Shown here: one piece after another, positions 13,600-24,000 of the stretch
How the letters are laid out: each line of letters opens with the position of its first letter
Position numbering within the stretch: position 1 is the first letter of the stretch
Made by a program: the position numbers and the translations under genes
The notes under the pieces: generated by a model
Databases searched by the model: none
Seen by the model: the letters and a program-made list of their open reading frames with translations, nothing else
Told to the model about the DNA's origin: nothing
Source: Pseudoduganella rivuli
GTDB lineage: Bacteria > Pseudomonadota > Gammaproteobacteria > Burkholderiales > Burkholderiaceae_D
NCBI RefSeq assembly: GCF_009674485.1
Contig: NZ_WKJJ01000004.1
Span: forward strand, 215,076 to 239,075
Direction of reading: 5' to 3'
DNA: 24,000 nt

Positions 13600-14358
13600 A
13601 TGGAACTGGGACTGCGTGGCAAGAAAGTCATCATCAACGGCGGCAGCCGCGGCATCGGCCGGGCGGCGCTCGAGCTGTTCGCGCAGGAAGGCTGCGACGT
13701 CGCCTTCTTTTCACGCGACGCCAAGCGCGTCGACGAGACCGTGACGCAATTGACGGCGGCGGGCGGCAAGGTGTTCGGCGAAGCCTTCGACATGAACGAC
13801 ATCGCGGCCTACCAGGCCTGGCTGGCCAAGGCCGCGGAAAAGCTCGGCGGCTGCGACATCTTCATCCACAACGCCAGCTCGTCCGGCGCGCAGGGCACCA
13901 CCGACTGGGATTTGACTTATAAACTCGACATGCTGGGCGCGGTGCGCGGCTGCGAAACGCTGGAACCATTCCTGGAAGCGTCCGGCGCCGGATCGGTGAT
14001 CCTGATGTCGAGCACGGCCGCGTTGGAAACGTTCATCTATCCGCAGGCGTTCAATGCCATCAAGTCCGCCATCATCACGTATGGCAAGCAACTGTCGCAA
14101 TTGTGGGCGGCCAAGAACATCCGCGTCAACATGCTGTCGCCGGGACCGGTCGCGTATCCGGGCGGCAACTGGTCGATGATCAAGGAGGCGGTGCCGGAGC
14201 TGTACAACAAGACGCTGTCGGAAATGCCGCTGGGCCGTTTCGGCGCGGTGGAGGATGTGGCGAACGCCATGGTATTCCTGTCGAGTTCGGCGGCTTCCTA
14301 CATCACCGGCGCCAACCTGGTGATCGACGGCGGCTATACCAAGCGCGTGCAGTTCTAA
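13600..14358 (+). CDS. SDR-family oxidoreductase
   Basis: Glycine-rich motif VIINGGSRGIGRA, plus HNAS, YxxxK-like AFNAIKSA and C-terminal ITGANLVIDGG. AGGAG lies upstream. Confidence 0.85.
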   Translation: MELGLRGKKVIINGGSRGIGRAALELFAQEGCDVAFFSRDAKRVDETVTQLTAAGGKVFGEAFDMNDIAAYQAWLAKAAEKLGGCDIFIHNASSSGAQGTTDWDLTYKLDMLGAVRGCETLEPFLEASGAGSVILMSSTAALETFIYPQAFNAIKSAIITYGKQLSQLWAAKNIRVNMLSPGPVAYPGGNWSMIKEAVPELYNKTLSEMPLGRFGAVEDVANAMVFLSSSAASYITGANLVIDGGYTKRVQF

Positions 14359-14371
14359 GCGGGAGCGCGCC

Positions 14372-14989
14372 ATGAAGCTGCATACCTCGATCGGGCCCAA
14401 TCCGCGCCTGGTCAACTTGTTCATCGCGGAAAAGGGCTTGTCGCTGCCGACCGTCATGGTCGACATCATCGCCGGCGAGAACCGGCGCCTGCCATTCCTG
14501 GCCATGAATCCGGCCGGCGGCACGCCGGTGCTGGAACTCGATGACGGCACCGCGCTGGCCGAGACCGTCGCGATCTGCGAATGGCTCGAGGAAGCGCATC
14601 CGGCGCCGGCGCTGATTGGCGCGACGGCGCGGGAAAGGGCCATTACGCGCATGTGGACGCGGCGGGTCGATTTGCTGGTGGTGCAGCCCATGACCGCCGG
14701 TTTTCGCGGCGCCGAGGGCTTGCCGCTGTTCAAGGACAGGCTGCGCTGCCTGCCGCAGGCGGCGGACGACCTGAAACTGGCGGCGCGCGAAGGGCTGGCG
14801 TGGCTGGACCGGCAACTGGGCGAGCGGCGCTACATTGCGGGCGATACCGTGTCGCTGGCCGACCTGCTGCTGTTCAGTTTTGTCGAGTTTGGCGCGCAAG
14901 TCGGGCAGCCGCTCGATGCCGGTAACCGGCGCCTGGCCGCCTGGCACGACCGGATGGCGTCGCGTCCCAGCGCAGTGGCGACCGCCTGA
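14372..14989 (+). CDS. glutathione S-transferase
   Basis: The N-terminal thioredoxin-like GST pattern ([14 protein letters not shown]...[29 protein letters not shown]) is followed by a helical C-domain. Confidence 0.85.
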
Positions 14990-15009
14990 GCGCGACCGGG
15001 AGGAAGCCC

Positions 15010-16647
15010 ATGCCATCGCTCTCGATTGCCAACAAGTTGCTGGCCGCGTTCGCCGCCATGCTTGCCATTGCGACCATATTGGGGATGTTTTCCATCAGCC
15101 AGCTGGGCACGGTCAACGGTACCGCCAAAGAACTGGGGCTGCTGTGGATGCCCAAGGTGCGTGCACTGCTCGAAGTCAAGGCCGACCTGGGAGACCTTCA
15201 TGCAACGGAACTGAACTATCTGTTGTCGCAGCAGCCGGCGTCGAAGGCTGCCTACAAGACCCGCATCGGCGTCATCCTTGCCCGGCTCGGCGGCACCGCC
15301 AAGCAGTACCGCGACTTGATGTCGACCCCCGACGAAATCACCATCTTCAAGGCGTCGGCCGTGACGTTCCAGGCATTCATGGCGGAGCATGAGAAGTTGA
15401 TGGCGCTGGTGGAAAAGGACCAGGGCGAGACGGCATTGACGCTGATCCGGGGCGACTATGCGCGCCTGCTGGAGGAATTGAATGGGCAGATCGATACCGT
15501 GGTCCGGCTCGATGTCGATGGCGCGGCCCAGGCCAGCCGCGATGGCGAAGCCCGCTTTGAGGCGGCACGGCTGTCGATAGGCTTGATGCTGGCAGGCGCG
15601 CTGGCGCTCGGGCTGCTGCTGGCGCTGTTGATTTCGCGCGCCATCGGCCGGCCGCTGCGCGCGGCCGCCAGTGTGGCCCGGCGTGTCGCCGATGGCGACC
15701 TGGGCGCCCATATCGAAGCGAAATCGGCTGACGAGACGGGCCAGATGCTGGACGCCCTGCGCGACATGAATGGCAGTCTGGTGCGGCTGGTGCGGCGGGT
15801 CCGTGCCGGCACCGAGACCATTGCGGGCGGCTCGGAGAGAATTGCCGCAGGCAACCTCGACTTGTCGCAGCGCACGCGGGCCCAGGCCGGCACGCTGGAG
15901 CAGACCGCCACGGCGATGGAGGCGCTGACGGCCGCGGTGAAAACCAATGCGGCCAGCGCGCTGCAGGCCAATCAACTGGCGGTCGCCGCCGCCGACGTGG
16001 CGAACCAGGGCGGCGCGGCCATGGCGCGCGTGATCGGCACGATGGGCGAGATCGATGCGTCGGCGCGGCGCGTGATCGACATCATTGCGGTCATCGACGG
16101 GATTGCATTCCAGACCAACATCCTGGCGTTGAACGCCGCGGTCGAAGCGGCGCGCGCCGGCGAGCAGGGCCGGGGATTCGCGGTGGTGGCCAGCGAGGTG
16201 CGCCACCTGGCGCAGCGCGCGGCCAGCGCCGCCAAAGAGATCAAGACGCTGACCGGCGATTCGGTGCAGCGGATCGACGACGGCAGCAGGATGGTGGGCG
16301 AGGCGGCGTCCACCATGCAGGAAGTGGTCGACAGCATCAGCCGTGTGACCGACTGCATGCGCAGCATCACATTGGCCAGCCAGGAACAGTCCACCGGCAT
16401 CGAGCGGGTCAACCGCGCCATCGGCGACATGGACCACGCCACGCAGCAGAACGCCGCGCTGGTACAGGAAACCGCGGCGGCCGCCCAGTCGCTGCAGGAG
16501 CAGGCCGGCGAACTGGTGACATTGGTGCGCGTGTTCCGGCTCGGGGCCGGCGACGCGCCGCCGGCAACGGCCGACTCGGCGCCAGCCGCCGATCCGGTGC
16601 GGCGGGGACTGCCGGCGGACCGCAGGATAGCCGCCGGCCACGTCTGA
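15010..16647 (+). CDS. methyl-accepting chemotaxis protein (4-helix-bundle sensor, HAMP, MA signalling domain)
   Basis: Two TM segments flank a roughly 160-aa periplasmic helical region. HAMP region is [18 protein letters not shown]. The highly conserved signalling hairpin is [42 protein letters not shown]. Confidence 0.9.
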
Positions 16648-16670
16648 GATAACATTTCACGGAGAATACG

Positions 16671-17519
16671 ATGGAAGTCAACGCGGTCGGCGTCATTGGC
16701 GCCGGCATCATGGGTAGTGGCATCGCGCAGATTTGCGCAGTCTCCGGCAGGCAGGTGGTGCTGGTCGATACGTCCGACGCCGCGGTGGCGCGCGGCATGG
16801 CCGGCATCAGCGGCACGCTGGACCGCGCGGTCGGCAAGGGCTTGCTCGATGCGCCGGGCAAGGCCGCGGCGCTGGCGCGGATCAGCGGGACCACGGATTA
16901 CCAGCGCCTGGCGCAATGCGACCTGGTGATCGAGGCGGCCACCGAGAACGAAGCCATCAAGTTGCAGGTACTTAAGCAGGTGGACGAAGTGTTGCGGCCC
17001 GAGGCGATCATCGCCACCAACACCTCGTCGATTTCCATCACCAGGCTGGCGGCAGCCACGTCCCGGCCCGAGCGTGTGATCGGCATGCATTTCTTTAATC
17101 CGGTGCCGTTGATGGCGCTGGTGGAACTGATCCGCGGCCTGCAAACGTCGGACCGGACCCATGAGACAGCCGAAATCCTCGCGCTGGCCATCGGCAAGAC
17201 CCCGGTCGCGGTCGGCAACAGCCCTGGCTTCGCGGTGAACCGGATTCTTTGCCCGATGATCAATGAAGCGATCTTCGTGCTGCAGGAAGGCCTGGCCAAG
17301 GCGAAAGACATCGACGACGGCATGAAGCTCGGCTGCAGCCACCCGATCGGCCCGTTGGCGCTGGCTGACCTGATCGGCCTCGACACGCTGCTGGCGGTGA
17401 TGGACACCCTGCACCAGGGTTTCAATGACCCCAAGTACCGGCCCGCGCCGCTGCTCCGGGAAATGGTCGACGCCGGGCGGCTGGGGCGCAAGAGCGGCCG
17501 CGGATTTTACGAGTACTGA
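16671..17519 (+). CDS. 3-hydroxyacyl-CoA (3-hydroxybutyryl-CoA-type) dehydrogenase
   Basis: Rossmann motif VGVIGAGIMGSGIAQ. Also has IIATNTSSISIT, HFFNPVPLM, and a C-terminal GRKSGRGFYEY typical of the Hbd/PaaH family. Confidence 0.9.
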   Translation: MEVNAVGVIGAGIMGSGIAQICAVSGRQVVLVDTSDAAVARGMAGISGTLDRAVGKGLLDAPGKAAALARISGTTDYQRLAQCDLVIEAATENEAIKLQVLKQVDEVLRPEAIIATNTSSISITRLAAATSRPERVIGMHFFNPVPLMALVELIRGLQTSDRTHETAEILALAIGKTPVAVGNSPGFAVNRILCPMINEAIFVLQEGLAKAKDIDDGMKLGCSHPIGPLALADLIGLDTLLAVMDTLHQGFNDPKYRPAPLLREMVDAGRLGRKSGRGFYEY

Positions 17520-17521
17520 CC

Positions 17522-18316
17522 ATGGACAGCACGAACAACCCGATTTTGTACTCCTGCCGCGATGGCATCGCGCGCATCCGCTTCAATCGTCCGGCGGCGC
17601 TGAATGCGATCGACGAGACGATGGCGAAGGCCCTGTGCGGCATCGCCTTCGAACTGGAACACAGCCGCGATGTGCGCGTGGTGGTGATGAGCGGCGAGGG
17701 CGCGGCCTTCATGGCGGGCGGCGACCTGGTGAGTTTTCACCAGGACAAGGCGCGCATGGCGTGCACCGCCGATGCGATCATCAAGCCGGTCAATGTGGCG
17801 TTGGCGCGCCTGGCGGCGCTGCCGCAACCGCTCGTCGCCAGCGTCCACGGCGCGGTGGCCGGCGCCGGCGTGAGCATGGCGCTGGCCTGCGACCTGTGCA
17901 TCGCCGCAGACGATACCCAGTTCAATCTGGCGTATGCCCGTATCGCCACCAGTCCCGACGCCGGCAGCACCTGGGCGCTGCCGCGCGTGGTCGGCACCCG
18001 CAAGGCGCTGGAACTGATGTTGTTGTCCGAATCGTTCGGCGCCGAGGAAGCGCTGCGGCTGGGCATCGTCAACCGGGTGGTCACGCGCGAAGGGCTGGCG
18101 GACGCCACGGAAACCCTGGCGCGCCGCCTGGCCGCAGGGCCGACCCATGCCTATGGCCAGATCAAACGCCTGGTCCAGGCCTCGTTCGACACCCGCTTTG
18201 AAGAACAGCTCGACGCCGAGCGCAAGGCCTTCTGTGCCTGTACCGCCACGGCGGATTTTGCCGAGGGACTCGATGCGTTCTTCGAAAAGCGGCGTCCGGT
18301 TTTCAGTGGTGGTTGA
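17522..18316 (+). CDS. enoyl-CoA hydratase/isomerase (crotonase family)
   Basis: Crotonase pattern RIRFNRPAALNAID...VVVMSGEGAAFMAGGDL...HGAVAGAGVSMALACD...FFEKRRPVF. Starts 2 nt after the upstream stop. Confidence 0.9.
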   Translation: MDSTNNPILYSCRDGIARIRFNRPAALNAIDETMAKALCGIAFELEHSRDVRVVVMSGEGAAFMAGGDLVSFHQDKARMACTADAIIKPVNVALARLAALPQPLVASVHGAVAGAGVSMALACDLCIAADDTQFNLAYARIATSPDAGSTWALPRVVGTRKALELMLLSESFGAEEALRLGIVNRVVTREGLADATETLARRLAAGPTHAYGQIKRLVQASFDTRFEEQLDAERKAFCACTATADFAEGLDAFFEKRRPVFSGG

Positions 18317-18349: not shown

Positions 18350-18538
18350 ATGGATACGTTCAGGAAGAAAAGCTGGAAATGGCTGTTGATATTGGCGGGC
18401 GGACTGGCTGCTGCCGCGGCGGGCGGTGTTTTCGATGACCCGGCGCCGGCAGGGCAAATCCAGGCCGTGATGCCGGACGGCTATCCGGGCATACCGCCGG
18501 CGTTCAGCTGGGACGATATCTTCAGGGCGCCGCATTAG
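18350..18538 (+). CDS. possible small membrane-anchored or secreted protein (62 aa), hypothetical
   Basis: AGGAG lies 6 nt upstream of the ATG. Basic N-terminus plus hydrophobic segment KKSWKWLLILAGGLAAAAAGGVF. Codon third positions are GC-rich like the neighbours. No recognisable family. Confidence 0.35.
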   Translation: MDTFRKKSWKWLLILAGGLAAAAAGGVFDDPAPAGQIQAVMPDGYPGIPPAFSWDDIFRAPH

Positions 18539-18567
18539 TATTGCGTTCCAACCGGCCGTCAATCTCG

Positions 18568-19092
18568 TCACGACTGCCTGCTGGAATCCATGGGGGCGAG
18601 GTATATGCGAATGCGTTCAATTGAAATCTCGATGCCGTCAGGAAGCTCGTGATGAGGGTGTATGGAGACCTGAAACTGAGCATCCGGCGGCAGCGCCTGC
18701 CCGAAGAGTTGATTGGCTTGGGACGTGAAGTCGAGGTAGCTTGTCAATCCGGCATTCGTTCCACCTGGATGAGACACACTGGCCTTCCTGAGGCCGAAAA
18801 GGGCGATACTTCCAAGATAAACCTCGCCGGCAGTGCCGCCCCCGTTCGGGCTGCGGGCCCGTATCTGCACGCGAAGCACCGTAGCGTCGAAAGTGCCACG
18901 CATGTTTTCGAGCGCAATGTAGACGCGGGAGGTTGAACCGATGCTGCTCATGGTCGCGGCATCGGAGAGGACCGCGCCCTGTAAGCGCACTGTCACTTCG
19001 ACGCCAGCGGATCGGACGGATGTGACGTTGTCACACGAGGCGATTACCAGAGGCGCCGAGGTTGTCCTCGATTTGTCACTCTTTTGTATCAT
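18568..19092 (-). CDS. free-standing paralog of the tyrosinase C-terminal (PPO-type lid) domain; hypothetical protein
   Basis: By-eye alignment to aa ~430-538 of the tyrosinase at 19900-21525. RVYIALENMRGTFDATVLRVQI aligns with QLYLKLENVRGTQDAAVLRVYI. GSIALFGLRKAS aligns with GSVGLFGLRRAS. GLTSYLDF aligns with GLTFILDI. ISIERIRIY aligns with IEVGRVSIY. It is the last gene of the - strand operon, 27 nt after the upstream stop. Confidence 0.7.
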   Translation of the reverse strand: MIQKSDKSRTTSAPLVIASCDNVTSVRSAGVEVTVRLQGAVLSDAATMSSIGSTSRVYIALENMRGTFDATVLRVQIRARSPNGGGTAGEVYLGSIALFGLRKASVSHPGGTNAGLTSYLDFTSQANQLFGQALPPDAQFQVSIHPHHELPDGIEISIERIRIYLAPMDSSRQS

Positions 19093-19119
19093 ATAGGTGC
19101 CTGTGCAACGTCTGATTTG

Positions 19120-19887
19120 CTATTGGGACCGTTTGAGTAAAGGCGCGAGCCAGCCAGGAGCATTTAAGCAAGCGGTGCGGCGAAGGCGTAAAGCGGCAGT
19201 GCGACCCCCCCTCAGTTTCCAGCCGGGTGTCGTCGGCGGATCCATACGCTCGCAGTACATGAGCAATGCCACCAGGGCCATGCCTTCAATATGCCACTGT
19301 GAGAGCGAATCGGCAAACAGCATCAGCGCCCAGCAAGAACCCATGCACCAGAATCCATGGTCCAAGCCGAAGCGAAGCGCGTCCATGTCGGCCGCCAGCC
19401 CAAATGCGGATAGCGGACGGTGAAAATGGCATTGATTCAGGCATCGCTGTTTCAGGGGGGAGACCTGCCAAAGACCGGCCGTCAGCGCCGTTACGCCAAC
19501 GAGGAAAGACTCATCCTGGACACCCCGGCTGATCACCAGTTCAAGCAGCTTCGTGGCCCAGCCTGCGACCAGCCAAATCGCAATGTACCCCACCCAGAAA
19601 AGCGCATTGCTGCGCCGTCGCCGGTCGCTAAACGAACTGATCCGAATGTGCAATAACGGCTGGATGTTCAGGGGCGTCATCATTGCGGCAACCATCAACA
19701 GCCATCCGGCGCTTGCCGACAGCATCCAGTCAGCCGTTGATCCAGGAATCCAGCCTGAGCCACAAATGGATGTTATCTGCACAGGCCCTGACCAAAGAGC
19801 CTGTGCAATGATGGGAGCCCACGCGGCACAGCTGATGAAAAAAAGGCAGCGCTGGATACGGTGGGCTTCGCTTCTGCTATAGAACAT
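19120..19887 (-). CDS. polytopic membrane protein resembling DUF2182/COG5486 (predicted metal-binding integral membrane protein; PpoB2-like candidate copper chaperone for tyrosinase)
   Basis: Several hydrophobic segments with Met/Cys/His clusters: LLMVAAMMTP, CLNQCHFHRP, GFWCMGSCWALM, WHIEGM. Starts 12 nt after the tyrosinase stop. Family assignment is by recollection of the motif pattern and is not searched. Confidence 0.65.
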   Translation of the reverse strand: MFYSRSEAHRIQRCLFFISCAAWAPIIAQALWSGPVQITSICGSGWIPGSTADWMLSASAGWLLMVAAMMTPLNIQPLLHIRISSFSDRRRRSNALFWVGYIAIWLVAGWATKLLELVISRGVQDESFLVGVTALTAGLWQVSPLKQRCLNQCHFHRPLSAFGLAADMDALRFGLDHGFWCMGSCWALMLFADSLSQWHIEGMALVALLMYCERMDPPTTPGWKLRGGRTAALRLRRTACLNAPGWLAPLLKRSQ

Positions 19888-19899
19888 CGTCGCGACGGA

Positions 19900-21525
19900 T
19901 CAAATCGGCTGGCGATAAATGCTTACCCGGCCGACTTCGATCGGGCTGGCTTGCGGCGCGCTGCCGGCGCTTTCGACATCGACTTTGATCTGGTTGGCGG
20001 ACAGCTTGTCTTTGACAAACAAGGTATCCACGAAGCGCGAAATATCAAGTATGAATGTCAGGCCTGAACCGCCGTGTGCACCATCCTTGATGCTTGCGCG
20101 CCGCAGCCCGAAAAGGCCGACACTGCCAACGAACTGCTTGCGCTGGGTGGCCTGGTCTGGCTGCGGCGGCAGATCGATGTAGACGCGGAGGACAGCTGCA
20201 TCCTGCGTGCCCCGTACGTTTTCCAGTTTCAGGTACAGCTGGTCGGGAAGCTGGGTGACGGATGCAAATCCCAAGCTCTTCACCACATTCTTTTGAACCG
20301 CCTGGTGCAGCCCCACGTTGACAGAGGTGAAGCCCGCTTTCGAGATCTGAAGTGGACCTGTGTTCGCGCCGAGAAGCTCGGCAGGCTGCGCCGGACTCGC
20401 TTTGTGGGTCAACGGTACAAACTCATTCGCAGCGCCGATAGCCCCCAACTTGACCAGCCGCTGCGCCAAAAGGTTTGCTGCCGGCTTTTGAGGCATTGCA
20501 GCGTCTTGATAGGCATAGTTCAAGGTCGAAAGGCTTTGTACTTCACCTGGCGTATAGACCCATGGCTCGCTGTCAGGCATCGGCATCACAAATTGCTGTG
20601 CCGGCCCGTCGAGCCAGGCGCTCTCGGTAGGGTTGGCATTTCCGGCATCGTTCCAGGAGGCCCACATCCGGTCGATATTGCAATGATGAAGGTAGAAGAC
20701 CGGGTCCAGTGCGGCCGTGCCTGGATCGGCCATGATGCCGTAGTCAGGACTGCTGAGGTTTCCGCCGACGTAGACGTGAACCAGGTCATGCGGATTACTT
20801 TCCATATTCCCGTGCGGGCTGCCGTTGTGGGCGAATCCGGACTCTGGTCCGCCGAATCCTGGTGCCGGCGTGGCTGGATCCGATCCGGTATAGAGATCAT
20901 TGTGCATGCAAATATCGGTCACATCACCATATTGCGGTTTGGGCGCTTGACCGTGTCCTTCTACCCAGGCGGGGGTCGGAATGTAGATATTGCCGTCATC
21001 TTGCGGGCCGAAGCGCATGGTGACAAACAAGGGGTTGGGGGTGCCGTCCGGGAGTTTCTCGGTGGTGAATGCCGGCGGAATTGCCGCATCGGCTCCTTGT
21101 GCGCCACCAAAGTAATTCCAGTACGGAAGCGCCCAGGTATCCGGTCCGCCGAGACTGACGATGTCAGCGCGCAGCTGCGCCTCCAGCGCCAGAAGGTAGC
21201 CGCGATGCCATGGCAGGAAGTACCAGGTGCCGTGTTGGCATTGATTCCAGAATTTGTCTTGTGTCGTCTGGCTTGGAAGCGGCGAGGTCGGCACGGCAGG
21301 CTGGCCGCTCACGTATCCCCAGGCGGGGAATGCGGGTGGATTGGGGTACCAGGCTGTGTCGGGATTCACATATTCGCCATGGATCGCAGCGAAGAACCAC
21401 CAGCTGGCCGGATCATTGAGCTCGCGCTGCATCATCTTGCCAACGCCCTTCGCATACCAGAGAAGGTCGGGATTACTGAGGGTACCGCCTTGGTTCCATG
21501 CATTCTGGCGCGTAAAAGTAGTCAT
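19900..21525 (-). CDS. tyrosinase / polyphenol oxidase (type-3 copper) with a PPO-like C-terminal domain; no signal peptide
   Basis: CuA: H49 (AAIHGEY) and C96-Q-H98-x8-H107 (CQHGTWYFLPWHRGY). CuB: H246-x3-H250 (NPHDLVHVYVGG) and FYLHHCNIDRMW. Y-x-Y motif (YAY, aa 337-339), then a linker and a roughly 145-aa C-terminal domain. Confidence 0.92.
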   Translation of the reverse strand: MTTFTRQNAWNQGGTLSNPDLLWYAKGVGKMMQRELNDPASWWFFAAIHGEYVNPDTAWYPNPPAFPAWGYVSGQPAVPTSPLPSQTTQDKFWNQCQHGTWYFLPWHRGYLLALEAQLRADIVSLGGPDTWALPYWNYFGGAQGADAAIPPAFTTEKLPDGTPNPLFVTMRFGPQDDGNIYIPTPAWVEGHGQAPKPQYGDVTDICMHNDLYTGSDPATPAPGFGGPESGFAHNGSPHGNMESNPHDLVHVYVGGNLSSPDYGIMADPGTAALDPVFYLHHCNIDRMWASWNDAGNANPTESAWLDGPAQQFVMPMPDSEPWVYTPGEVQSLSTLNYAYQDAAMPQKPAANLLAQRLVKLGAIGAANEFVPLTHKASPAQPAELLGANTGPLQISKAGFTSVNVGLHQAVQKNVVKSLGFASVTQLPDQLYLKLENVRGTQDAAVLRVYIDLPPQPDQATQRKQFVGSVGLFGLRRASIKDGAHGGSGLTFILDISRFVDTLFVKDKLSANQIKVDVESAGSAPQASPIEVGRVSIYRQPI

Positions 21526-21581
21526 CTTCGTCTCACTTTCTTGATATTGGTTGCGAATGGGGGCAAGTCAACTGGCTTGCT

Positions 21582-22211
21582 CTACCAGGAGAACATGCAT
21601 TTCTCAGGCTCTACGATGTCGCTTTCAAATGGAGGTTGCGGGTAATACTGAAGGTTGCGTTGCACTTTCCGCGCTGTCTCATCGCCAAATAGCTGACGGA
21701 CCAGGTGCAGCGATTCATCCAGGCAGGACGAAATGCCGCCGCCGGTGAGCCGATTTCGGTCGTGGACGAAGCGCGGGAAGCCGTCTGCGACGTCGATGAG
21801 GGGGAACTGTCGCAAGCAGGGCAGAAATGCCCAGTGCGTGGTCGCCTTGTAGCCGTCCAGCAGGCCCGCCCTGGCTATAAGGAGCGCACCTTCGCATACT
21901 GAACAAACCCAGGTGGCCTGCTCGCCGATACGGCGCAGATAATCAAGAAAGACGCCACCGTCCTGGCGATCCATCAGCATTGCCAACGCCTTGGGATCGC
22001 CGCCAGGCACCCACAGAATGTCCAATTTGTCGACGTCCGATAATCGTTTCGACGCGAGAAATCGGAAACCATCCCGGGTGACGACAGGTTGGTCAATCGA
22101 GGTGGCCAACAGCTGCACTTCCACCTTGTCGCCAAGCCAACTGAAGACCTCGTGGGGGCCGGTGACGTCAAGCAGGTCGACGCCCTGGTAGACTGGAATG
22201 CCGATAATCAT
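21582..22211 (-). CDS. DJ-1/PfpI-family protein (class-I glutamine-amidotransferase-like fold)
   Basis: Has IGIPVYQGVDLLDVTGPHEVF, ILWVPGG, the nucleophile-elbow Cys context VCSVCEGALLIARAGLLDGYKATTHW, and C-terminal LTGGGISSCLD. AAGAGGGG lies upstream of the ATG. Confidence 0.85.
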   Translation of the reverse strand: MIIGIPVYQGVDLLDVTGPHEVFSWLGDKVEVQLLATSIDQPVVTRDGFRFLASKRLSDVDKLDILWVPGGDPKALAMLMDRQDGGVFLDYLRRIGEQATWVCSVCEGALLIARAGLLDGYKATTHWAFLPCLRQFPLIDVADGFPRFVHDRNRLTGGGISSCLDESLHLVRQLFGDETARKVQRNLQYYPQPPFESDIVEPEKCMFSW

Positions 22212-22220
22212 GAGCCCCTC

Positions 22221-22691
22221 TTATTGGCCGCCAGTGTGCGAAGTGTCCGCCAACATGATGAAGCTCGCCGTAACGCCTGCCGGCGCACCGTTGTGCGGAA
22301 CGGCTCTTAGGACGGTCCCGACGAATGCCGGCACTTGATTGACGCTTGTCGGCCATACCGGGCAGAGAAATGCCTGATAGTCGTATTCCCAGCCTTCAGT
22401 TGGCGTACCTGGGCGGCCTTTGCCCACGAACGCCAATTTGGTCGCAGATTCCGTGTCCGTCAGTTGGCCGCGTACGTCAAGAATGTAGTCGCTCGACATC
22501 ACGAATTCGCCGGAGATCGTTTGTTCGTCTTGCGTCAGGGTGAACACGCCTTCGCCGAAGATTAAGGCCAGCGCTTTGGTTGGATCGCCGTCCACAAGCC
22601 CAATATTGTTGCGATAACTTCGATAGACCCAGGTGGAAGATTGAAGGGTTTGGTGCGCATTCAGCGCCTCTGGCGTGACGTTTGAATTCAT
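22221..22691 (-). CDS. hypothetical protein (156 aa), first gene of the tyrosinase operon; no recognisable family
   Basis: ATG is preceded by GAGGT. The stop lies 9 nt before the DJ-1 start. Alternating hydrophobic/polar stretches suggest a beta-rich soluble protein. No signal peptide and no motif I can name. Confidence 0.6.
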   Translation of the reverse strand: MNSNVTPEALNAHQTLQSSTWVYRSYRNNIGLVDGDPTKALALIFGEGVFTLTQDEQTISGEFVMSSDYILDVRGQLTDTESATKLAFVGKGRPGTPTEGWEYDYQAFLCPVWPTSVNQVPAFVGTVLRAVPHNGAPAGVTASFIMLADTSHTGGQ

Positions 22692-22907
22692 GATGACGAC
22701 CTCGCTTCGATAGCAAAAGTTGGGTACGGATACCGGCCGATTTCAGGAAACGTTCGTGTGGATTGCGCTACTCCGTTTGGGGCAGAGATTTCTGAGTCGC
22801 GTAGGAGGAATCTTACTGAGTATAAAAACGGCAATACTATCCAATTGTTGCAATTTGTTTTTTTGCAACAGCTAACAACATGTGGGAGAGGGTACGGAGA
22901 TGCGACG
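22692..22907 (-). promoter_or_regulatory. AT-rich 216-bp intergenic region upstream of the tyrosinase operon (candidate promoter/operator, and terminator of the GT gene)
   Basis: This is the only sizeable non-coding gap on the - strand in this block. A - strand TATACT (-10-like) lies at 22819-22824, with no well-spaced -35 found. The inverted repeat is listed separately. Confidence 0.3.
22846..22870. repeat. 8-bp perfect inverted repeat TGTTGCAA-n9-TTGCAACA
   Basis: The arms are at 22846-22853 and 22863-22870, with a T-rich 9-nt spacer on the + strand (A-rich on the - strand). It lies 38 nt downstream of the GT stop on the - strand. No U-tract follows it on the - strand, so it could be a weak terminator or a protein-binding palindrome. 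Confidence 0.4.
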
Positions 22908-24000
22908 TTACGTTCCGGCTGCGGATGGTCGATATCCCGCCTCGATCACCTGCGCCCCGCACGCCGGGCCATCGAAACGACGTACATCGCGTTGCATGGC
23001 CGCCAGCGCGGCGTGCACGTCCCGGTCGCCCAGCAGGCGGTCGGCATGGGCGCGCAACATCGCCGGCGTGTGGCGCACGCGCGATACGCGCACGCCCACG
23101 CCGAGTTGTTCGAGGCGCTGCGCGACCCAGGTCTGGTCGAACACAAAAGGAAAGGCAATCACCGGTACGCCGTGATACAGGCACTCGGCAGCCGTGTTGT
23201 AGCCGCCATGTGCAAAGACCAGGTCGAACTGCTCGATCAGGTAAAACTGGTTGACGAAGGGCCTGCCGAGGATGGTGGCCACGAGCGGCAAGTCCGCGAG
23301 CGCTTCGCTGAGCAGATCGGGCGGCGCCGAAAACAGGAACAGGCAATCTGCCTCATTGTGGGATAACACGATATGGCGGAATATGCGCAATGCCGCCGCA
23401 CGGTTGTGTTCCATGCCGGCCAACACCGAGCCCAGCGAAACGAAGAACTTCCTGCCCTTGAATCGGGCTATCCGGACCGCCAGGTCCAGGTCGTCGGCGC
23501 TCGGCTCGCGCCGCACGAAGGCCGGGCCGACAAAGGACACCGGCACCGCGCCGGTGGTGCCGATGGCGCTGGCCGCGCGCTGGTCACCCGGCGCCGCCGC
23601 GCAAAAGGTGGGTGTGGCAAAGCAGAGGTAATGCGCTGGCAAGGCCAGTGCGTTTGCGCCGTGTGGCAAGCTGCGCTCCAGACTCGCACACAGTTCGCTG
23701 AACAGCGTATTGAACGCGGTCGCCATGCCTTTGCCGACGCAGGACGGCAGCTCGTCTTTCGGCAGGAACTCCAGCGGCGAGCTGATCGTGTAGGCAAAGC
23801 GGCAGTCCAGTTCACCGGCCAGCAGTGGCGCCAGCGGCAGCAACTGGTCGAACAACAGCAGGTCCGGCGCAAACTCGCGGCAATGCCGCAAGGTGTCGGC
23901 ATGGACCGCCAGGCAGAATTGTTGCAAGGCCTGCAGCGCTTCCGTCACCAGGCCGCCATCGGCCACGTGACCGATCGCCTGCTCGATGTTAAACGAGGGA
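22908..24000 (-). CDS. GT1-family (GT-B fold, UDP-glycosyltransferase/MGT-like) glycosyltransferase, 5'-truncated by the window edge
   Basis: C-terminal nucleotide-sugar motif HGGYNTAAECLYHGVPVIAFPFVFDQTWVAQRLE. The reading frame remains open from the GTG at 23966 to nt 24000, and the length (352 aa + 11 codons) is short for the family, so the true start is probably beyond the window. Confidence 0.85.
   Translation of the reverse strand, partial: PSFNIEQAIGHVADGGLVTEALQALQQFCLAVHADTLRHCREFAPDLLLFDQLLPLAPLLAGELDCRFAYTISSPLEFLPKDELPSCVGKGMATAFNTLFSELCASLERSLPHGANALALPAHYLCFATPTFCAAAPGDQRAASAIGTTGAVPVSFVGPAFVRREPSADDLDLAVRIARFKGRKFFVSLGSVLAGMEHNRAAALRIFRHIVLSHNEADCLFLFSAPPDLLSEALADLPLVATILGRPFVNQFYLIEQFDLVFAHGGYNTAAECLYHGVPVIAFPFVFDQTWVAQRLEQLGVGVRVSRVRHTPAMLRAHADRLLGDRDVHAALAAMQRDVRRFDGPACGAQVIEAGYRPSAAGT

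Follow-up and report, generated by a model that had tools for sequence, protein, structure and literature searches.

Why should an operon whose tyrosinase already carries a C-terminal lid encode such a lid a second time, as a protein of its own? This question is raised by a 174-aa open reading frame within the 24,000-nucleotide stretch of Pseudoduganella rivuli DNA analyzed here (the window). A first-pass annotation, made by eye, had described the product as a free-standing paralog of the tyrosinase lid and had estimated 35–40% identity over the last ~110 aa of the enzyme. Formal alignment bears out the relationship. In a single BLASTP comparison aa 56–168 of the 174-aa protein matched tyrosinase aa 429–541 without gaps, with 39 identities in 113 positions (35%), 51% positives and 61.6 bits; at E = 7e-16 this similarity is significant. 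The conserved blocks that had been named, LEN[MV]RGTxDAxVLRV, GSxxLFGLRxAS, GLTxxLD and IxxxR[IV]xIY, were all recovered. Thus, the estimate of identity held, but the extent of the homology had been underestimated. The 174-aa protein matches Pfam DUF7868 (PF25271) with aa 17–164, corresponding to profile positions 5–156 of 158 (E 5e-22, 79 bits with a gathering cut-off of 25). The tyrosinase also scores above this cut-off and carries the domain at aa 382–539 (E 1.9e-47) beside its catalytic PF00264 domain. Since both proteins match DUF7868 across the domain, the homology covers the whole lid of ~150 aa and reaches beyond the last 110 aa.

The protein is identical to WP_443094164.1, which both NCBI and UniRef name 'DUF7868 domain-containing protein' of Pseudoduganella rivuli. 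Public records differ in the start, giving 174 aa in WP_443094164.1 and 127 aa in the older MRV71674.1. The 174-aa form is the correct one, because homologs conserve the N-terminal 47 residues, which are also predicted to fold with confidence. Structure prediction of the protein alone with AF2 yielded a confident beta-sandwich (pLDDT 86, pTM 0.82), and the top PDB match of this model in Foldseek was the lid of 8b74 (E 4.4e-6, TM 0.60 on query). Other solved lids were found among the matches, namely those of Ralstonia 7xio and of apple MdPPO1 6elv (TM 0.55 on target). A profile of 88 short DUF7868 proteins compared with the PDB recovered the HcTyr1 lid alone (E 1.4e-23, residues 312–464), with the plug columns in register. 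Sequence, profile and predicted fold together make it well founded that the 174-aa product is a paralog of the lid domain.

HcTyr1 from Hahella sp. CCB MM4 (PDB 8B74) has a C-terminal LID over the active site in which Phe397 acts as a placeholder; the enzyme slowly cleaves off this lid by itself and becomes ~10-fold more active without it (PMC11609597). Of the solved structures, that of HcTyr1 is nearest to the window tyrosinase, with an alignment that spans the core as well as the C-terminal domain (E 1.3e-58). The 174-aa protein shares with the HcTyr1 lid the DUF7868 family, the fold and the LFGL..AS motif, and the HcTyr1 lid is its best PDB match by profile as well as by Foldseek. In the printed alignments Phe99 falls on HcTyr1 Phe397, the F of GLFGL, and on Phe472 of the window tyrosinase, which assigns it to the plug position by alignment only. 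Differences exist as well. Identity to the HcTyr1 lid is only ~18–25%, and in HcTyr1 the lid is part of the enzyme chain until self-cleavage removes it, whereas the 174-aa protein is translated alone and coexists with a cis lid. Membership in the lid class presupposes the same polypeptide as the catalytic core and removal upon activation, but here the domain is a separate open reading frame whose homologs conserve the N-terminus.

The coordinates of the genes and of their relevant parts are collected in Table 1. The first-pass annotation had taken the tyrosinase as the neighboring gene, which proved incorrect, as a PpoB2-family gene sits between the two. It is the product of this gene that matches PF09948 (PpoB2), and the 174-aa protein has no match to that family. 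The 174-aa open reading frame starts 27 nt past the PpoB2 stop with its own ATG. Five closely spaced minus-strand genes form a cassette that encodes, in this order, a 156-aa protein, a DJ-1/PfpI family protein, the tyrosinase, PpoB2 and the free lid. Pfam and NCBIfam scans of the 156-aa protein gave zero matches. A scan for promoters and terminators between and around the cassette genes revealed nothing, and an Rfam scan of the entire window returned no matches. Read by eye, the N-termini of the tyrosinase and of the 174-aa protein contain no signal peptide, and a twin-arginine signal is absent from the N-terminus of the latter.

Table 1. Position of the cassette genes and of the lid and plug elements in the window.
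Feature	Position	Strand	Basis
Free-standing DUF7868 (lid-domain) protein, 174 aa	18568..19092	-	ORF with ATG start; Pfam DUF7868
Plug loop L98-F99-G100-L101-R102-K103-A104-S105	18778..18801	-	F99 codon 18796-18798; alignments to 8b74
PpoB2-family membrane copper chaperone, 255 aa, operon gene 2	19120..19887	-	Pfam PF09948, E 2e-31
Tyrosinase, 541 aa	19900..21525	-	ORF; PF00264 + DUF7868
Tyrosinase catalytic core, aa 1-345	20491..21525	-	Pfam PF00264, E 1.9e-32; 8b74 match E 1.3e-58
Cis lid of tyrosinase, aa 382-541, DUF7868	19900..20382	-	Pfam E 1.9e-47; aligned to HcTyr1 lid
Plug Phe472 of tyrosinase cis lid	codon 20110-20112	-	Phe in all cis lids compared
DJ-1/PfpI family protein, 209 aa, upstream cassette gene	21582..22211	-	Pfam PF01965, E 4.4e-16
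156-aa protein, cassette gene 1	22221..22691	-	no family match

Part of this arrangement has a precedent. In Marinomonas mediterranea PpoB2 transfers copper specifically to the tyrosinase PpoB1, and there, too, the tyrosinase gene is followed by that of a PpoB2-family membrane protein (PMC2855505). The Marinomonas ppoB1–ppoB2 operon has been described as a two-gene operon, whereas the operon in the window adds a third gene, which is confined to one subclade. The order tyrosinase (core and lid), PpoB2, DUF7868 on one strand, with spacings from 73-nt gaps down to 4-nt overlaps, is kept in 21/21 loci of the set L001–L021, and also in L022/23, L025, L028/29, L030/31, L032 and seven metagenome loci. 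This amounts to ~35 three-gene operons in four phyla, with Beta- and Alphaproteobacteria, Verrucomicrobia and Bacteroidetes as hosts. Eighteen loci, counted with one genome per species, come from Glaciimonas, Pseudoduganella, Janthinobacterium, Burkholderia, Paraburkholderia, Piscinibacter, Chthoniobacterales/Verrucomicrobia, Hymenobacter and Sphingomicrobium. Distant members with 25–30% identity (L025, L028/29, L030/31 and L032) show the same three-gene order. Indeed, every stand-alone copy with enough flanking DNA was found in this order with one exception, P0019, which lies on a 1.7-kb contig and has no PpoB2 gene directly upstream.

An exhaustive profile search (E <= 1e-3) returned 518 clusters at the 50% identity level. 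Among the best 150 of these clusters, 62 short proteins favor the stand-alone profile over the lid profile, and 25 short proteins group with cis lids, all of them with a Phe plug. These 25 matches are probably 3' ends of tyrosinase genes on short contigs, mis-called from an internal Met, and they were excluded from the counts; the fragment reading was checked for two of them, P0008 by sequence and P0040 via L026. Many of the 160–170-aa 'DUF7868 proteins' in metagenome catalogues are probably tyrosinase 3' fragments or frameshifts as well (L026, L027, L076) and inflate stand-alone counts. At one of these loci, L076, the tyrosinase at first seemed to lack its lid and to precede a free one; the gene is in fact a frameshifted tyrosinase, and the locus was rejected.

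The tyrosinase core itself has 3385 relatives at E <= 1e-20, and the architecture of core plus DUF7868 is present in nearly all of the best 120. For an unbiased sample, metagenomes were scanned with the core alone as seed. This gave 80 loci, and at least 1450 nt of sequence downstream of the tyrosinase were available in 51. PpoB2 directly follows the tyrosinase in ~50/51 loci. A genuine stand-alone DUF7868 gene comes after PpoB2 in 7/51 (L033, L034, L036–L039 and L044), and ~42/51 have PpoB2 only and no free lid; the remaining loci are the frameshifted tyrosinase L076 and one without PpoB2. The seven free-lid loci are among the closest relatives (59–68% identity). The pair of lid-bearing tyrosinase and PpoB2 is a widespread core system, and the free lid is an add-on. 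As the free lid marks one subclade and ~42 sister operons do without it, it is not needed for copper loading in general. A separately encoded lid next to an enzyme that already has one had been called unusual. This stands in so far as full-text literature searches found no paper on it, but the domain has a Pfam entry as a DUF, and the gene is fixed throughout one clade of operons. The same searches yielded no paper on DUF7868, none with both tyrosinase and DUF2182, the former name of the PpoB2 family, and no account of a bacterial lid that acts in trans.

Neighbor-joining of the core sequences placed all 30 tyrosinases whose operon has the third gene in one clade, with zero two-gene loci inside. 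Among the sampled operons the free lid was acquired a single time, with no later loss within the clade, and this clade has spread over four phyla. Its tyrosinases also share core insertions at aa 59–63 (21348–21362, minus strand) and aa 186–200 (20926–20970, minus strand), and they carry Met32 and Met170 where two-gene relatives have Gln and Ala. Lid trees were computed as neighbor-joining distance trees, midpoint-rooted and with no bootstrap. The cis lids fall together in these trees. The stand-alone copies lie outside that group on longer branches and never cluster with the lid of their own operon; branching within the two groups is broadly parallel. Comparison of the window with L001 gave dN/dS values of 0.26 for the free lid, 0.25 for PpoB2, 0.14 for the cis lid and 0.12 for the core. 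The free-lid gene is under purifying selection and evolves faster than the cis lid. It encodes a real, selected and separately translated paralog of the tyrosinase lid domain.

We then asked which residues are retained, using a set of 84 verified or stand-alone-like sequences. The L-[F/Y]-G-L-R-x-A-S plug loop is the most conserved feature of the stand-alone family (L98 99%, G100 100%, L101 100%, R102 95%, A104 99%, S105 94%), with a conservation at least as high as in cis lids. At position 99 all 84 copies have either F or Y. The R65-G66-x-x-D69-A70 motif is also among the most conserved columns. Within the stand-alone copies the plug is Tyr in 54/84 (64%) and Phe in 30/84, and it switches between close relatives, whereas the cis lids have Phe throughout (43/43 in one set and 30 + 38 = 68 in another). 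When the F/Y state of the plug was compared by mutual information with alignment columns of the two partner proteins, tyrosinase and PpoB2, the signal reflected phylogeny only. Phe plugs have been described in C-terminal extensions, such as HcTyr1 F397, vsTyr F453, aoTyr F513 and abTyr F454, and the separately encoded Streptomyces caddies have a Tyr98/Tyr92 plug that is oxidized to the quinone (PMC10526336, PMC6312201). The split between Phe in cis and Tyr or Phe in trans, as read from the alignments, matches this published pattern of Phe extensions and Tyr caddies (PMC10526336).

No His, Cys or Met column exceeds 35% among the 84 stand-alone sequences, so conserved metal ligands were not found in this set. 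Several positions that are near-invariant in cis lids are lost in stand-alone copies, namely the DGxHGG loop and the lid residues that correspond to columns 127, 162 and 165 in the numbering of the 174-aa protein, so that the interface cannot be identical. The DGxHGG loop lies just past the plug; in the window tyrosinase it corresponds to aa 479–484 (IKDGAH, 20074–20091, minus strand) with His484. This His occurs in 62/68 cis lids of both operon types and in 26/92 free-standing copies, and the HcTyr1 lid lacks it. It is conceivable that the His makes a contact or serves as a copper relay with PpoB2.

The first-pass annotation had also pointed to the Streptomyces caddie MelC1. Like MelC1/ORF378, the free lid is a small, separate protein of a tyrosinase operon; the caddie places its Tyr98 side chain in the active site (PMC6312201, PMC10526336), and most free DUF7868 copies carry a Tyr plug, although the window protein differs with Phe. 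Beyond this the two part. A Pfam scan of the 174-aa protein at E <= 0.1 returned DUF7868 alone, and no caddie chain was present among the top 50 fold matches listed for its model. The 174-aa protein is unrelated to MelC1 in sequence and fold and has neither conserved copper-binding residues nor a twin-arginine signal. Unlike in the MelC1 system, the enzyme of the window has its own lid and the PpoB2 chaperone. The free lid is lid-like in family, fold and plug, and it is encoded like a caddie without caddie homology or copper ligands.

To see how a free lid may sit on the core, we modeled a single-chain chimera with AlphaFold2, in which tyrosinase aa 1–381 were followed by free-lid aa 13–174 in place of the cis lid. 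The alignment contained rows for 8 full-length tyrosinases, 18 core-only and 62 stand-alone sequences. Both domains were well folded (pLDDT 87.3, pTM 0.72). Superposition on 8b74 gave TM 0.57 (on target) and an rmsd of 19 Å over 543 columns, for a model with 8 bridging rows only and no native-lid control, and the values were similar against all latent PPO structures. Such values are to be expected when the core alone superposes, and the free lid of this chimera was thus not placed at the HcTyr1 lid position. The net charges of free lid and core are anticorrelated (Pearson -0.47, p = 0.02, uncorrected for phylogeny), and the cis lid behaves similarly. Verrucomicrobial cores are basic and have acidic free lids, and Hymenobacter cores are acidic and have basic free lids. 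This is a weak hint of an interaction between free lid and core.

Taken together, the free lid is probably a so far undescribed third partner in the operon that caps or regulates the tyrosinase. The best reading of the sequence data, which we put forward tentatively, is that it could act as a pseudo-substrate cap in trans. The 174-aa protein would bind the tyrosinase on its active-site face and push Phe99 of the plug loop into the substrate pocket above the dicopper center, in the manner of the cis-lid Phe472. It would take up this role once the cis lid is displaced or cleaved. Capping would then restrain or time the activity of a cytoplasmic enzyme without signal peptide, and copper delivery would be the task of PpoB2 and not of the 174-aa protein. 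In homologs with a Tyr plug the cap might be oxidized and released, as described for the Streptomyces caddie, and the window protein with its Phe would represent a non-consumable cap. Trans capping is the most economical function, since the sole feature that is held almost absolutely is the loop that enters the pocket in the homologous lid. Restrained quinone formation in the cytoplasm would fit with the absence of a signal peptide and with the DJ-1/PfpI neighbor, although a need for such restraint is speculation. Speaking against a cap, the tyrosinase keeps its own lid, so that the need for a second one is not evident. Furthermore, inhibition and activation by the free lid are not distinguished by the sequence. 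In an unlikely extension, the free lid would be a convergent caddie for which the lid fold of the enzyme itself was used. As a sacrificial or reversible pseudo-substrate cap it would act after copper loading by PpoB2 and movement of the cis lid, and in the Tyr-bearing majority of the family its oxidation by the enzyme would lead to release and hence serve as an activation timer.

Several other functions have to be weighed against capping. As an analogue of MelC1, the free lid could be a metallation helper that bridges PpoB2 and the apo-tyrosinase, keeps the site open or shielded during copper insertion and then leaves. The gene comes immediately behind PpoB2, and its start codon often overlaps the PpoB2 stop codon, which suggests co-production. 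Moreover, its dN/dS equals that of PpoB2, and the product is a separate polypeptide with an aromatic plug that is mostly Tyr, as in caddies. Nevertheless, it has no conserved His, Cys or Met to carry copper, even the near-invariant His of the cis lids is lost in most free copies, and both the fold and the family differ from MelC1. Because PpoB2 and the cis lid suffice in the ~42 related operons and copper ligands are missing, we regard a MelC1-like role in copper loading as improbable and less likely than a cap. An activator that competes with the cis lid or docks beside it and speeds its release or self-cleavage, and so switches on the latent enzyme, seems quite improbable to us. It would have a counterpart in apple MdPPO1, where an externally added C-terminal domain speeds self-cleavage of the pro-enzyme rather than inhibiting it (PMC6563526); this domain (Csole, PDB 6ELV) resembles the free lid in being a lid of related fold that is stable alone and acts in trans. 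The slow self-cleavage and the gain in activity of HcTyr1, which belongs to the same lid family (PMC11609597), and the retained plug loop would also agree with activation. The plant precedent is a distant one, however, as Csole is a laboratory construct of a plant enzyme and not a natural gene, with no detectable sequence similarity. Moreover, the window tyrosinase has no sequence sign of cleavage, and the sister operons without a free lid would lack their activator.

The beta-sandwich may also have been recruited elsewhere, to plug or regulate PpoB2 or to bind the polymer product or carbohydrate, with no contact to the tyrosinase active site. The chimera in which the free lid did not dock as a lid would agree with this, as would its faster evolution compared to the cis lid with loss of lid-specific positions, the resemblance of jelly-roll lids to carbohydrate-binding modules (PMC10526336), and the one member outside the operon (P0019). 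It is at odds with a near-total invariance that falls on the active-site plug loop, where F or Y only is tolerated, and with strict co-inheritance with one tyrosinase clade, and we hold such a recruitment to be rather doubtful. The homology to the 3' end of the operon's tyrosinase gene might finally be explained by a non-functional leftover of a tandem tyrosinase duplication, but this is extremely improbable. The open reading frame is intact and of constant length in ~35 loci and 62 clusters at 50% identity, its product has a confident predicted fold, and in trees it never pairs with the lid of its own operon. A decaying remnant was ruled out by this conservation together with the dN/dS of 0.26.

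Bacterial tyrosinases are sorted in the HcTyr1 and vsTyr papers into caddie-dependent, lid-bearing and bare enzymes (PMC11609597, PMC10526336). The free-lid clade combines a cis lid and a membrane copper chaperone with a second lid in trans. A free lid that caps the enzyme would represent a natural and genetically separable protein inhibitor or regulator of tyrosinase. It would then allow a direct test of the order of latency, copper loading and activation inside the cell, and might become a tool to control recombinant tyrosinases in catechol, melanin and lignin chemistry. If the oxidizable cap works as a timer, it would constitute a third, undescribed mode of bacterial tyrosinase control beside the caddie- and the lid-dependent ones. 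The strict use of Phe in cis and of Tyr or Phe in trans offers a simple, testable rule on why an attached lid avoids an oxidizable plug.

Finally, the genomic setting of the cassette deserves mention. Homologs of the 156-aa and the DJ-1/PfpI proteins lie beside free-lid operons (L002, L003, L007, L010, L028 and L037) and also beside tyrosinase–PpoB2 operons without a free lid (L091, L098 and L104/105). They look like further accessory genes of tyrosinase–PpoB2 operons. The G+C content of the five-gene cassette (window ~18500–22700) is 55–61%, and that of the flanks is 65–69%. The right flank is common to the window and its near-identical relatives L022/L023, and L001, whose tyrosinase core is 86% identical to that of the window, is surrounded by unrelated genes. 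The five-gene cassette appears to move as a block. Judged by translations and neighboring annotations, window positions 13600–18316 encode housekeeping-type proteins, namely a short-chain dehydrogenase, a glutathione S-transferase-like protein, a methyl-accepting chemotaxis protein, a 3-hydroxyacyl-CoA dehydrogenase and an enoyl-CoA hydratase. On the opposite side of the cassette, a glycosyltransferase is encoded at 22908–23966 on the minus strand.
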